DNA of 64,000 nt. Source: Rhizophagus irregularis (taxonomy: Eukaryota). Shown here piece after piece: positions 1 to 47,284 of this stretch; position 1 is the first letter of the stretch, and the number at the start of each line of letters is the position of its first letter. The notes under the pieces were generated by a model, which ran no database searches, was not told where the DNA came from, and saw nothing but the letters and a program-made list of their open reading frames with translations. The stretch spans positions 5,518,001-5,582,000 of the forward strand of contig NC_089429.1 of the NCBI RefSeq assembly GCF_026210795.1. The letters are read 5' to 3'. The position numbers and the translations under genes were made by a program.

Positions 1-1
1 C

Positions 2-1275
2 TGGATTGCAATCAAAGAAATATATGAGGATCCTTCTAATCCTCTCACATGGCCGACATTATTAATGACCGATGGTGATGCTTCGTTCTGAGGCGCATTT
101 TCGCGAGGGATGCAACAGTACAATGTCACTATACGTGTTGTTGACCTTTATAGTTTTGAGAGCTTGGCTTTGATTAAAGCGTTCAAGAAAAATTTAGCGA
201 AATTAATATATAATGTCCAATATGCCATAGAAGGGCGATTAGCTAAAGGGGAGCGATCAAGATTATGGAATAAAATCCTTAAGAAGTACATTGATTTTAT
301 GAATAATAGTAAGACTCGCCTTATCGGAATGTCACCAGCTCGTGCTATGACTTTGGAAGAAGTCGAATCAAAACCTTCTAGTAAAGCTAAGCGGGCAATT
401 GGGAGACATGAAGAGATAAAGTTAAAAAAGGGTATAGCGGTTAGATATCTATTGAAATCAGGCGAACTGGAAGGTATCACAGGCACCGAGCAACTGATCT
501 GTACTGGTCCTTGCGTGTCTATAAGATCAAAAGAGTTGTTATTGGAAGGAATCCACCACAACCAGTCTTATACTATCTTGAGAATGAACCTATCGAATCT
601 ACTGCCCATTTGATGGGACGAAACCCCAAAAGACCTTTCAAATTCGAGGAGCTCCAAGTAATCGAGGAACCCGATAAAATCGAATATCCGCCTGATGAAT
701 TTATGCGGAAATACCATGATTCTAGATTTATTCACTTCACTCGAATTGCAGATAATAAGCTAACACAAGCTGAAGGTTATGCAAAGAGACGTGGCAGACT
801 ATGCCTTGGAAAGACCGGGCAAATAAATGGGCATGATATATATCTTTGGTCTTATAAAAATGGTGCGCATCAATGGGAGTATCCATTAAAGTATATCATG
901 AAAAAATTCGAATGGTGCCCTCTTTGCCACCACACTACTGAAAGAACTGTACGATATATTTTTGAGGATCTACTAGGCAAGAAATTTCCATCATGTAAGC
1001 CGAATTTTTTGCATGGAATGCAACTTGATGGATATAACGAAGAATTGCGACTAGGATTCGAATTTCATGGCAAACAACACTATAGCCTTAATTCAATGTT
1101 TCATAGGAGAGGCCAGATAGATTTGGATGAACAGAGGTCGCGTGATCAGAAGAAGCGGAATATATGTAAAAAAGAAGGTATATGTCTTATCGAAGTGCCA
1201 TATACATGTGACCTTTTTCCCTACATTAGGTATACGCTAATCGAAAAGGGATATTTGGATGATGCAAGTGGGTAA
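2..1275 (+). pseudogene. Retroviral-type (rve) integrase, 5'-truncated by window edge, continuing into Zn-ribbon + PD-(D/E)xK (Vsr/DUF559-like) endonuclease
   Basis: Frame 2 reads WPTLLMTDGDASF*GAF...SLALIKAFKKNL...WNKILKKYIDFMNNSKTRLIGMSPA, like the Maverick integrase core (TDxGxEF, xERxNxTL, YNxxxHxxIxMxP). TGA at 89-91. A frameshift near 475 joins it to [15 protein letters not shown]...YYL...FKFEELQ, then WCPLC and [21 protein letters not shown]...[20 protein letters not shown]. Confidence 0.8.
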
Positions 1276-1361
1276 CCCAATCTATTGGGCAGGGCATTTA
1301 TTGCCGGAACTTGAGAAATTGTTACATTATTTTTCGATATAATAATTAGTTAGATCAAATC

Positions 1362-2140
1362 ATGAAATACGTAATATTCGCAGTGGACAAAGTCAAGCCC
1401 TCGAAAAAATATCAGGGTGATCCTCATGCACCGGCATGGCCTTTTCGAATTATAGTTGCAGGGGCTAGCAATTCGGGCAAAACAAATATGATTCTAAACC
1501 TGCTGGTGATGAACAAATTTTACTATATGTTTAGGAAAAAAAAGAGTTCTAAAATAGGTGAGCGCAATGTTAAATGTGACGATGTGATATTATGTGGCCA
1601 CCACCTTGATGAGCCTAAATACGGTATCGTTCAAAATTTTATAAATATCTCGCGCAAGATAAATCCAAGCCATACTATGAAGATAACACATTTTCTACAC
1701 TCACTCCTGATGAAATTCCAGATCCAAAAAAGTTCAATGCTAAAAGAAGTACACTAATGATATTTGAGGATGTCTGTTCGGACCCTCCAGCTATACAGAA
1801 AAAAATTATTCCATATTTTAGTAAAGGTCGCCATGAGAATATTTCTTCTATTTATGTCTCACAAAAATTTCACAGGATTCCTACGGATATTCGTGAAAAT
1901 GCAACGCATATTGTACTCTTCAGTGGTGGAGGTTCAACCCGAAAATTTGCTGACATTATAAGTCCTTATACAGATGCTGATCCGCACAAAGATTCAAAGG
2001 TCATCAATGGTTATTTGAGACAAAAGGAATTTGTGGTCATTGATATAAATAAACCGAGATCTGAATCCTTTTCACTTCGATGGGACACTCCGCTCAATTT
2101 GGAAAAGGAAATCGAATCGTTGGGCAAAACTTCCAACTAG
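1362..2140 (+). pseudogene. A32-like (FtsK/HerA superfamily) viral DNA-packaging ATPase, one frameshift
   Basis: PFRIIVAGASNSGKT (Walker A), STLMIFED (Walker B), SKGRHENISSIYVSQ (arginine finger/sensor), IPTDIRENATHIVLF. ORFs 1362-1757 and 1757-2140 join through a 1-nt frameshift in the T run near 1637-1640 (real or assembly error). Confidence 0.88.
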
Positions 2141-2167
2141 CTGTGCTGGCAACCAATTACCTGATAA

Positions 2168-2872
2168 TCATTTACCTGCCAAATCCCGAAATGTGTATTT
2201 TTTCTGAACCTCTAGGTCATATTCAGATTCTCTATGTCGTTTCGCCCATAAATCTCTTTCACAATTGCTGGAATACGTTTCCGGTTCTGTAGTTACATCA
2301 CTGTACTTCGTGTAAGAAAGAATCTGATCAACAAGAGCGATAATTTTTCTATCCTTGGCAGAAATGACATCCTCCAAACGCCGGCATCTATTCTCTAACA
2401 GGTCAATGGACTTTTCAGCTGATGCAATAGCTTTTTTCGTATCAGGGATTATACTTTTGAAGAAAGCTACCGAATCTGATAATTGGGTGACTTTCCCGCC
2501 ACTCTCCTCCAAAGACCTGGTCATGGCTACCTCACGAGACGTATACTGCTCTTGCAATTCGAGAAGCTCTTCAATCTTTTTTTCCAATACCTGCTTTGAT
2601 ATACACAATTCCTCATTTTCTTGTCTTAACGAAGTTTCACAGTCGCTAGTAATAGGCTTCATCTTCTGACGCTCTTTTTGCTTAATATAATTTCCAACCG
2701 CCTTATTTAATAAATCTTCCACTTCGGGGTGGATACTACTTGCCTGTTCTATCAATAATGGATGTTTTCGTGAAGTAAGACGTCGCCATGTATCTATTTT
2801 GATGGAACGAGGAAGCTGGTTAAGTTGCTTTGAGTAATATACGTGAAAAGATGGTGTTAGTATACCAGTCAT
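2168..2872 (-). CDS. Hypothetical coiled-coil protein (234 aa)
   Basis: Intact intronless ORF with heptad-like central region (LEKKIEELLELQEQY...LENRCRRLEDVISAKDRKI), convergent with the ATPase. Confidence 0.65.
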   Translation of the reverse strand: MTGILTPSFHVYYSKQLNQLPRSIKIDTWRRLTSRKHPLLIEQASSIHPEVEDLLNKAVGNYIKQKERQKMKPITSDCETSLRQENEELCISKQVLEKKIEELLELQEQYTSREVAMTRSLEESGGKVTQLSDSVAFFKSIIPDTKKAIASAEKSIDLLENRCRRLEDVISAKDRKIIALVDQILSYTKYSDVTTEPETYSSNCERDLWAKRHRESEYDLEVQKKYTFRDLAGK

Positions 2873-45030: not shown

Positions 45031-46183
45031 GGTGTATATGCAAGAAAGCAGTATAAAATAACAGAAAAACTAGGAAAGTTCAAAATAAAAATTTTATATA
45101 ATTTTGAGCGAATATGCTTGCTGGCAAAACACTGGGTTAGTGGTAGTACCCAAAAGTAATCAATATAATAATGCCTAAAAATAATCGATGTAGTAGTACC
45201 CCAAAGTATCCCAGAATAGTAACTATACGAGAAAGAGTTCTAGGAAAGCTCGGGCGAAAACTAGGATATAAATTTGGTAGTACACCAAAGTAGAATAATA
45301 TATAGGAAAGAAAATAAGAAATTATGCTTTGGTGTACTACCGCCGATAGGCAGGAAAGAGATTGGGAAGGCAGAAAGTCTCAGGAGAATACACGAAAAAA
45401 GGTATGAAAGCAATATAGCCTGAACTAATTCGGCACTTTGTGCCTCATCCTCAGCAATCAAAAGGGTCACGAAAGGCAGGATTGCAAGAATGGCACAACA
45501 TCGGCACTTCATGCCTCACCGGCAATCAAAAAGTGAGTGAATGGATTGCAACACATCTTTAGCAAATAGATGATGGATTGCAAATTCGGCACTTCGTGCC
45601 TCATCTGGCAATTAAGAGATTGGCAATCAAGAAGGAAAATATATGGGCGGATTAATATAATGCAAATTACACCTCTGATCCTCTAACCAACTGACCACCA
45701 AACCAGGCCCTCGAAAGTTACTCAAAAGTTACTTGAAAGTGATGGGAAAGTGCCTGGAACTGGCGAGGAACTGAACACGTGATCATGACGCAGTAAGGCG
45801 CAGTAAATTTTGTTAATTTTGGCCAGCACTATTCCATAATTTCGGCCAGATCTTTTGACATAAATAACTCGGCATTCAAGCTGGCATCCAAGCTGGCCTG
45901 AAACTGGCGAACTAATAGAATCACTCTAGTTCCTTGCCAGTTCCTCACTAGTTCCATGACAGCTCCAGGATACTACCAGGTCGCTACCATGGCGCCAAGC
46001 TGGATCCTCCAAATCACATGCTCTAAAGATCGGCCAGAATTAAGAAATAGTGTTGGCCGAAATTAATCACGAATTTACTGTGCCACCCGTCACCTTTTTT
46101 CGGCATCCTAAAGACAACCAAATAGGCGCACATCACACCCATATTTACTGACCAATAAGTCACAAACAGGAAAAGCGGACCCC

Positions 46184-46330
46184 AACTTTAGGACAAATTA
46201 GTCAATGATTTATTATGTCTTAGGACGTATTAATTGATAGACTATTATGTCTTAGTACATATTAATTGATAGATTATAATGTCCTAGTACATATTAATCA
46301 ATAGACTATAATGACCTAGGACATTTTAGT
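46184..46330. repeat. 32-bp tandem iteron-like repeats
   Basis: Core TGTCYTAGKACR at 46216, 46248 and 46280, variant TGACCTAGGACA at 46312 (period 32), and a partial copy (TAGGACA) at 46189. Confidence 0.9.
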
Positions 46331-46338
46331 CTGATGCA

Positions 46339-46400
46339 AGCGGTTTGTCCTAGTACAATTTAATATATTAATATATTAAATTGTACTAGGACAAACCGCT
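46339..46400. repeat. Perfect 62-bp palindrome with 26-bp pure A/T centre
   Basis: AGCGGTTTGTCCTAGTACAATTTAATATATT|AATATATTAAATTGTACTAGGACAAACCGCT; all 31 pairs checked by hand. Confidence 0.98.
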
Positions 46401-47284
46401 AATGCCACACCAATGTTATGGTCATTTATCATATGACATTTGGCCTAGAGGTAGGCTCTGGGTCAAAAACCACCAGGCAGATGGCTATTTTCGGGCGGCT
46501 GAGTGTGCACGCACTACTAACGTTTCCCCCTGTGAATGAAAAATAAAAATAAGAACTTTTGACCAGTCTCCTCTTTTAATAAATCCTGTATTTCCAGTGC
46601 ATGTTTCGCAATTCCTACAATTTAAATCTGATTTATATATCAATCACCATCTCTAAAATATACACTTTTATAAAAATTTACATTTGACCATATGATCTCA
46701 AACTTTATACTTTATTGTAATATTCTTTTTGCGTATAACATTTTCTCAAAATACCCCTTTTTAATCTAAAAAGTAAAAATACAAAATATTATACTTATTT
46801 TGCATATTACTTCTACTAAATTCTTAATGGAGCGCGTGATTTCGGAATTTTACTACGGCCTCATTTTTGATTTGGATATGATGAGTCTAGCATTGTGGGC
46901 ATTTAAAGTCTAGAAATAACGGCAAAAAATGGAACATGTGGAAAACGATAGACCTATCCTAATTTATTTTACTTTTCTTTATTCAGATTCCCAAGCGAAG
47001 TTGGTGTTCCTCCCAATTTAAAGAAAAACAGGAAGTCAGAAAGAACAAAAAAGCAAGAGAAGAATGTAATATGTATGTATTTCTAAATTGATATGTCAAA
47101 GGGCACAAAAGTTATACAATTTGTTACACTGTAATCGTAATCTCTGTATTCATTCGGTTTCAAGAAATAAATATGATCTTGTGCATTGCCTTATCATATA
47201 ATTCATATTGCTGCAAGAGCTATATTTTGAATATTAAATATGTAATCGGCATATTATAGTTCATATAACATAATTTTAGGGAAG

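Follow-up and report, generated by a model that had tools for sequence, protein, structure and literature searches.

The 64,000-nucleotide stretch of Rhizophagus irregularis DNA analysed here (assembly GCF_026210795.1, contig NC_089429.1, positions 5,518,001 to 5,582,000 of the forward strand; hereafter the window, numbered from its first letter) contains, at 1-46400, the right 46.4 kb of one large, decayed, virus-like integrated element. The original prediction, made from the sequence alone, had placed here a giant element combining an rve integrase, a packaging ATPase, a protelomerase-like recombinase and an AEP-UL9 helicase. All four core genes were recovered by family or structure matches, and they lie together with a structured right end as follows.

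1-1275, forward strand: 3' part of an rve-type integrase with zinc-binding and homing-type nuclease domains; stop at 89-91, frameshift at about 475
1350-2140, forward strand: A32-like packaging ATPase (Pox_A32, in two frames); frameshift near 1640
37015-38118, reverse strand: protelomerase-like tyrosine recombinase of 367 amino acids, frame intact; R199, K232, R301, Q330, Y341
41714-45030, reverse strand: AEP primase, Cys-rich linker and UL9-like SF2 helicase; three in-frame stops, one frameshift
45070-46400: structured terminal region, of which at least 45951-46400 has a second identical copy (putative terminal inverted repeat)
46188-46323: 32-bp tandem repeats resembling the palindrome arm, kept in five of five metagenome loci (themselves retrieved with the same repeat)
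46339-46400: perfect, loop-less 62-bp terminal palindrome with 31-bp arms, axis at 46369/46370
46401-46405: right copy of a putative 5-bp target site duplication, AATGC (loose ends in three of four runs)
46401-46518: single-copy flank outside the element, containing ACTACT

Here and in other copies, the end of the element coincides with the outer edge of the palindrome, which in the window is position 46400; the original prediction makes no mention of this palindrome. The perfect arm measures 31 bp, against longest arms of 8-12 bp over 20 locally shuffled windows, and the 62-bp sequence is predicted to be a candidate telomere-resolvase site. Contigs from four public sequencing runs were placed on 46150-46900 at 80% likeness. 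In all four, depth is at baseline from 46410 to past 46518 and several-fold greater up to the palindrome, contig depth not being equal to copy number. On the inner side of the palindrome an exact-match contig stands at 1.5-2.5 times baseline depth in the same four runs, and in two runs it spans 45951-46368. The original prediction had put the end at 46518. The ACTACT and AACGTT motifs on which it drew do occur in the sequence, but 46401-46518 is single-copy in all four runs. The ACTACT at 46513 therefore does not mark a repeated end of the family, and it is at 46400 that related termini part ways. The flank 46401-46518 itself contains two small hairpins and the ACTACT, followed by a fall in GC content, and may be the decayed remains of an older element's end into which the present element inserted. 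Two further observations at the palindrome were set aside. Contig breaks at its axis (46368/46371) were discarded as evidence of hairpins because word-graph assembly breaks at a palindrome axis regardless, and Rfam matches to miRNA hairpins lie far under the gathering scores and reflect self-complementarity only.

A second terminus is visible in the same runs. Among the matches listed, a loose end, by which we mean a contig departing from the window sequence, departs at exactly 46400 or at its mirror position 46339 in three of the four runs. Once reverse-complemented, its first five letters match the start of the right flank; in the orientation of a left flank, its last letters are AATGC. The identity covers 5 bp without extension to 6, and the chance of such a match is about 0.001 by flank composition. 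This terminus is identical to the right one over at least 418 bp, as against differences of about 15-20% for other termini. Because an identical terminus is combined with a matching 5-bp flank, the second terminus probably represents the left end of this same element, with a 5-bp target site duplication beside it. The left-end signature anticipated earlier (AACGTT followed by AGTAGT) thus gives way to an end equivalent to 46400 and a 5-bp duplication.

A metagenome scan with the 32-bp repeat retrieved five contigs (L001-L005) of 1-2.3 kb, too short to include genes. In L002 and L005, likeness to the window stops at the palindrome edge and unrelated DNA lies beyond; the L002 insertion interrupts a sacsin-domain open reading frame (ORF). 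L004 is truncated by the contig end. L001 has the repeats but no palindrome and L003 ends before it, and both are omitted from the covariation count. Over the four palindromes, 7 of 31 arm pairs are changed on both sides, 95.7% of cells pair, and a 20-bp core at the axis is invariant in all four sequences. The end motif is AG...CT in the window copy, with AGTAGT or ACTACT at the homologous position of other termini: the inner palindrome arm of L002 begins AGTAGT, and ACTACT directly follows the palindrome in loose ends of diverged termini in two of the four runs. In L004, the terminal sequence of about 400-480 bp is followed (480-2118) by unrelated DNA without a helicase, which may represent a left end or a non-autonomous derivative. 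No locus for the recombinase, terminal repeat, helicase, integrase or ATPase was found in viral contigs, and scans of prokaryote genomes likewise gave no locus.

The recombinase belongs to a family of 78 homologs, with 531 representatives at E ≤ 0.001. A model built from a 53-sequence alignment reached a predicted local distance difference test score (pLDDT) of 84.7; an earlier 40-row model, with a pLDDT of 67.8, matched weakly. The modelled fold is nearest to protelomerases, over both the DNA-binding and the catalytic domains. All six Foldseek matches at E ≤ 0.001 are TelA (best E 4e-5). VIA-align ranks TelA first (Z 13.9, with a root-mean-square deviation of 5.5 over 264 aligned residues, and 13.3), followed by TelK (11.6) and ResT (8.0), the next recombinase being lambda integrase at Z 7.4. 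The Atlas gives ResT-TelK_cat at 0.96, with PF16684 clusters ranking next after the recombinase's own, and the top structure match in the viral library is a coccolithovirus telomere resolvase (E 1.3e-3). The earlier assignment as protelomerase-like is thereby borne out, and in an intact frame. We take R199, K232, R301, position 330 and Y341 to fill the R-K-R-H-Y catalytic roles, by analogy and not by structural superposition. Of the 53 rows, 46, 45, 45 and 37 keep the R, K, R and Y, respectively, the others being mostly gaps; at position 330 the 53 rows show His in 25, Gln in 13 (the window copy included) and a gap in 13. On the strength of the model, the enzyme is predicted to resolve the 62-bp palindrome into covalently closed hairpins.

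Seven homologs of about 28-30% identity (P0379, P0389, P0428, P0466, P0470, P0473 and P0475) are mostly shorter and keep the catalytic motifs; they may come from non-fungal hairpin replicons. A Gigaspora homolog (P0061) is labelled 'highly derived D5-like helicase-primase', a hint that in some relatives the recombinase has another kind of helicase as its partner.

The primase-helicase is present as five ORF pieces that tile a 1142-residue homolog. It matches Herpes_ori_bp (E 8.7e-13) and a UL9-type SF2 helicase (E 6e-23), as well as CyRepA1 (E 2e-39, below cut-off), and the AEP domain of the full-length homolog scores 0.98 to AEP_C962R clusters in the Atlas. Its sole phage match is VP882 RepA (E 8e-5), encoded near the protelomerase of that phage. 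The AEP-UL9 identity proposed at the outset is upheld, and with it the presence of a primase-helicase within a large integrated element. Two of the three stops are present in exact-match short-read contigs, so this copy is truly broken.

A full-length integrase homolog aligns from residue 132 onwards to 2-1272, across one stop and one frameshift, and about 130 integrase codons fall to the left of the window. On this alignment the integrase and the ORF at 445-1275 form one protein with a C-terminal homing-type nuclease domain, the latter matching PHROG at E 1.5e-12. Pfam rve matches are weak, with six of the nine homologs tested giving E values from 2.4e-4 to 0.05, all under the curated cut-off; one homolog was aligned to an IS3 transposase (E 3e-8). 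Taken together, these matches make the homology to rve integrases clear. The integrase family also has a conserved Glu six residues before a Lys at the third catalytic acid position, in addition to the fused nuclease domain. The ATPase matches Pox_A32 in its two frames at E 0.0066 and 4.6e-6, the second above the cut-off, and an ATPase lies 3' of the integrase in six other fused gene models (P0236, partly identical to the window, was omitted).

Recombinase and helicase are linked elsewhere. Recombinase accessions fall within 60 of a helicase accession in 5 of 33 cases, or 3 of 31 once two that are probably this locus are removed, and on three contigs of another assembly the gaps between them are 1, 1 and 9. 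One gene model (P0326) has, in the order found in the window, a helicase, the piece at 39.0 kb and a recombinase of 36% identity; models from Glomus (P0176) and Diversispora (P0045) also join the two, as judged by eye. Cargo types of the element (F-box-LRR, aspartyl-protease-like and the ORF at 13.2 kb) are fused to recombinase or helicase in several genera. Because this adjacency and these cargo fusions recur, 13-46 kb forms, as judged from sequence, a coherent family, and to that extent the claim of a large integrated element stands, apart from its end at 46518. Named recombinase or helicase homologs come from Rhizophagus, Glomus, Funneliformis, Entrophospora, Diversispora, Gigaspora and other Glomeromycota, and named integrase homologs from Rhizophagus and Gigaspora.

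The remainder of the element is occupied by cargo genes and nested insertions.

2168-2887, reverse strand: coiled-coil cargo ORF, no family above cut-off
4409-5627: nested non-autonomous element with terminal inverted repeats, an 8-bp target duplication and 72-bp tandem repeats
7235-11139: small orphan ORFs and a Myb/SANT gene (9407-10199)
13217-15187, reverse strand: long coiled-coil cargo ORF
15774-20692: two convergent cargo genes with Crinkler N domains, one with an AAA/STAND-like NTPase region
21942-26660, reverse strand: cargo array of F-box, F-box-LRR and aspartyl-protease-like genes with a repeated spacer of about 130 bp
26657-36325: nested element with 43-bp inverted repeats, a 3-bp duplication and 50-bp tandem repeats, splitting an F-box-LRR gene
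36467-36871, reverse strand: small aspartyl-protease-like ORF (weak match, E 0.12)
39103-41494, reverse strand: nested hAT-like element with a BED finger, a DUF659 fragment, 81-bp tandem repeats and an 8-bp duplication

The host-type cargo foreseen by the original prediction is thus represented within the element by Crinkler, F-box, F-box-LRR and aspartyl-protease-like genes. Gene models from Rhizophagus diaphanus, Dentiscutata and Funneliformis join the gene types of the array to recombinase or helicase, two models of Rhizophagus clarus (P0182, P0191) combine pieces homologous to 13217-15187 with the helicase, and the small aspartyl-protease-like ORF adjoins the recombinase in other gene models as well. 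The spacer copies of the array (21942-22073; 23003-23130, 78% identical; and, by eye, about 24345-24420) give it a cassette-like arrangement of co-oriented genes. Among the insertions, 4409-5627 appears to split a cargo gene, and we take it to be hAT-like from its 8-bp duplication; both hAT-like insertions (4409-5627 and 39103-41494) have long internal tandem repeats, of 72 and 81 bp. The 9.7-kb element at 26657-36325 encloses a Plavaka-transposase element of about 6 kb (28029-34082) with near-intact ends. To the right of the element lie BED-finger genes at 48421-51656 and 60806-61441, of which two are fusions with Sel1 repeats. They are similar to the 5' portion of the nested hAT-like transposase and, from this similarity, are candidates for transposon-derived host genes.

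Subtracting the three top-level insertions (4409-5627, 26657-36325 and 39103-41494) leaves 33,103 bp, in agreement with the earlier estimate of about 33 kb. GC content is 0.34-0.39 in the element segments, 0.28-0.29 in three of the nested elements and 0.17-0.32 to the right of the element, and composition is even outside the nested elements. GC at third codon positions (GC3) is 0.27-0.45 over the 14 element ORFs measured, and 0.10-0.17 in four of five nested or flanking ORFs, the fifth having 0.27; GC3 of the integrase and ATPase agrees with that of the rest of the element. No further family terminus was found between the integrase and the right end, and ACTACT sites such as that at 6236, weighed as inner Maverick ends, are unsupported.

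In the right 46 kb, Pfam gave no match to protein-primed DNA polymerase B (pPolB), capsid or protease families, over 45 of 59 ORFs of at least 100 amino acids and 70 of 86 ORFs of 62-99 amino acids; the ORFs omitted are antisense, overlapping or of low complexity. Sequence searches with Pfam, PHROGs and NCBIfam matched no jelly-roll capsid or maturation protease in this right part of the element, and no polymerase, capsid or transcription factor of the Nucleocytoviricota core type was matched there either. The proposed search for pPolB and jelly-roll capsid genes thus found none by family searches over these 46 kb. This copy is unable to replicate by itself, because its helicase, integrase and ATPase are broken. 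Short-read contigs from three runs have one extra T in a homopolymer at 46094 relative to the window, so that some of the window's frameshifts could be assembly errors.

On balance we favour the interpretation that the element is an integrating replicon with unfolded hairpin telomeres as its ends, which its own protelomerase would resolve; insertion would be by an integrase, probably the Maverick-type enzyme that it carries. On this view the element likely exists by turns as a chromosomal copy and as a free linear DNA closed by hairpins. Each end would consist of a palindrome within terminal inverted repeats, with the 5-bp target duplication outside. The protelomerase is predicted to cut each palindrome at its axis and reseal it, giving a hairpin-ended linear molecule or a replicated copy. 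By analogy with N15-type replicons, the primase-helicase and a host polymerase would then produce a head-to-head, tail-to-tail dimer, which the same enzyme would resolve; with hairpin ends and a resolvase, pPolB and a terminal protein would be unneeded. For insertion, each hairpin would be nicked about 30 nt from its tip, freeing a 3'-OH ending in CT, which the integrase would join to the target with a 5-nt stagger. Host gap repair would unfold the hairpin and so rebuild a perfect palindrome, forcing the arms to co-vary. Particle formation is a candidate further step, of which the ATPase alone is seen. Terminal palindromes of fixed length, co-varying arms, an integrase-type motif at the outer edge and a short duplication are together the outcome expected from insertion of a nicked hairpin. 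The unfolded palindrome also has the form of the junction that arises when a hairpin telomere is replicated, on which telomere resolvases act, so one enzyme could both excise the element and resolve its dimers. With a perfect palindrome and identical termini beside broken core genes, we suggest, though with low confidence, that the latest move of this copy took place in trans.

Several points weigh against this interpretation. The left end lies beyond the window and no contig joins the second terminus to the interior. The 5-bp duplication rests on a single event, and the flank of L002 also starts with AATG, so that, if some targets are preferred, a 5-bp match could be likelier by chance. No empty site was found, the junction being present in seven of seven runs. 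The covariation comes from four sequences, of which L004 and L005 are nearly identical, and the pairing structure used was that of the window's own palindrome. The hairpin-ended phase suggested by the original prediction now has a concrete 62-bp candidate site; the phase itself is a prediction, contigs by their nature being unable to display a free hairpin form. The window recombinase has Gln in place of His, and no sequence-level protelomerase match was obtained in PDB, Pfam, PHROGs, NCBIfam or against the VP882 protelomerase; PF16684 in particular gave no match for the recombinase (P0001) at E ≤ 1 and does not appear among the families listed for the 53 members (25 of 29). In the integrase, Lys occupies the third catalytic acid position in 64 of the 64 homologs holding this stretch, and activity is not a given; the residue facing it in the IS3 transposase is the catalytic Glu. 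Across the sequences compared the Lys is a trait of the integrase family and not a mark of decay, and together with the fused nuclease it may point to an altered active site or to a division of labour in hairpin nicking. Finally, of the co-occurrence envisaged for all four genes, the recombinase-helicase part recurs, but the integrase was near neither partner elsewhere (0 of 16 accessions within 60, about 1.5 being expected at the control rate). Integrase accessions lie near a helicase in 1 of 17 cases, probably this locus, and near a recombinase in 0 of 17; across the 30 clusters examined this test is weak, as the linked recombinase-helicase pair itself scores 3 of 31.

This linkage result bears most directly on a reading that we regard as unlikely, though well short of negligible, in which the hairpin-ended helicase/protelomerase element is real and the integrase and ATPase come from an ordinary pPolB Maverick, a piece of which was captured or became nested, insertion being carried out in trans by Maverick integrases that recognise AG...CT or by another enzyme. 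Integrase-ATPase modules 82-84% identical to that of the window do lie on contigs without a sampled recombinase or helicase accession (the same 0 of 16), and no gene model among 480 proteins fuses integrase or ATPase to recombinase or helicase. Mavericks have expanded in Glomerales (PMC11952901), and Rhizophagus A32 ATPases, drawn from fragmented assemblies, group with Maverick ATPases (bioRxiv 10.64898/2026.06.19.733378), according to the excerpts available of both. The weakness of the linkage test tempers the first of these points. Neither an end repeat of Maverick type nor a remnant of pPolB was seen 3' of the ATPase, the two genes lie inside the element's putative ends with a GC3 like that of the rest, and the end motif and duplication are typical of an rve integrase, so the family needs one.

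Alternatively, the palindromes could be replication origins or self-priming fold-backs, involving UL9-like binding or a rolling hairpin, with the recombinase acting otherwise, for example as an integrase or excisionase. Herpes origins are AT-centred palindromes, the helicase has a herpes origin-binding domain, iteron-like 32-bp repeats adjoin the palindrome, and copying by fold-back would also give co-varying arms; in Foldseek, moreover, Cre (E 3.0e-3) comes close to TelK (E 2.7e-3). We nevertheless consider this improbable, since VIA-align places protelomerases far above other tyrosine recombinases and they also come first in the viral library and the Atlas. Tyrosine recombinases are not known to leave a target duplication. 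Site size and loop-less symmetry also resemble the 56-bp telRL of N15 (PMC13236599, in part). A pile-up of unrelated decayed elements, with the second terminus belonging to another insertion and the 5-bp match due to chance, seems very improbable: four nested elements are present, the genome is repeat-rich and the left end is not seen, but several genera have gene models in which the cargo types again adjoin recombinase and helicase, composition is even once the nested elements are set aside, and the second terminus is identical over a length at which other termini differ. The nicked-hairpin interpretation may be extended to a new Glomeromycota-wide class of elements with hairpin-telomere ends, a protelomerase acting as excisionase and resolvase of dimers, AEP-UL9 replication, an atypical Maverick integrase inserting from nicked hairpins, tens of kilobases of Crinkler and F-box cargo and possible self-packaging. 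We propose this class tentatively, judging it to be a little short of evenly balanced.

Among known systems, Starships, Cryptons and other tyrosine-recombinase transposons are large fungal cargo carriers with an enzyme of the tyrosine-recombinase fold. The element differs from them in a fold nearest to protelomerases, in palindromic ends with a target duplication, and in having its own primase-helicase, integrase and ATPase. With Mavericks/Polintons, as far as the excerpts available describe them, it shares an integrase of rve-type sequence, an A32 ATPase, putative terminal inverted repeats, AG...CT ends and a probable short duplication, and some Maverick copies have (AGT)2//(ACT)2 ends (PMC8097293) like its related termini. 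In contrast to them, neither pPolB nor protease nor capsid was found over its 46 kb in the window, and it has an AEP-SF2 (UL9-like) fusion as its replication gene instead of SF1 or SF3, a protelomerase-fold enzyme, a perfect palindrome at each end (the left one putative), much host-type cargo, a Lys at the third acid position of an integrase with a fused nuclease, and a probable duplication, from one event, of 5 bp instead of 6. Since pPolB and capsid are not shown and the duplication is not of 6 bp, we do not file the element as a Maverick. The 6-bp duplication and end motif of Polintons are described in PMC8097293; integrated Polinton-like viruses have duplications of 5-7 bp, and a Glomus Polinton had no capsid found (both in the excerpt of PMC7805220).

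The linear plasmid prophages N15, PY54 and VP882 share with the element a protelomerase beside a primase-SF2-helicase and a palindromic site of similar size, primase-SF2 helicases being described for N15 and PY54 (PMC4889955, in part). They differ in being non-integrating (N15, PMC13236599, in part), with one internal telRL and a DnaG-type primase, whereas the element is chromosomal, with host flanks, two terminal sites (the left one putative) and an AEP primase. By analogy, it would work like an N15-type hairpin replicon grafted onto Maverick-type integration. Endogenous giant viruses of the phaeovirus type in Ectocarpus are likewise integrated, have a telomere resolvase and are proposed to pass through a linear phase with hairpin ends, but they integrate through a circle by a separate tyrosine recombinase (attP x attB at CC) and have an internal telRL (PMC13236599, same excerpt). 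In the element, which is far smaller and in which no giant-virus core genes were found, the resolvable site is itself the integration end, with a putative 5-bp duplication.

Maverick expansion in Glomerales or Rhizophagus has been reported without architecture in the available parts of PMC11952901 and PMC8647823, and the partial text of PMC10640383 concerns a distinct viral region of 1.5 Mb. Swaps of the replication module to helicase-primase fusions are described as common in the Maverick group in the excerpt of bioRxiv 10.64898/2026.06.19.733378, whose available text has no occurrence of 'protelomerase', 'resolvase' or 'UL9'. In the open literature searched, with subscription journals and Repbase outside reach, we found no account of such an element; searches joining protelomerase, Polinton, hairpin and integrase retrieved none, and a related query retrieved the phaeovirus study alone. 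Existing repeat libraries could already list these elements as Maverick. Within this literature, the palindrome-ended helicase/protelomerase family appears undescribed, even if its integrase should prove to be borrowed.

If the preferred interpretation is true, hairpin telomeres would replace protein priming in a third solution to end replication among Maverick-related elements, combined with DDE-type insertion, and the element would form a bridge between Mavericks, N15-type hairpin replicons and hairpin-ended large DNA viruses. A fungal protelomerase candidate is now in hand, together with its likely 62-bp substrate. For arbuscular mycorrhizal fungi themselves, such elements would provide a vehicle for their expanded Crinkler and F-box-LRR families.

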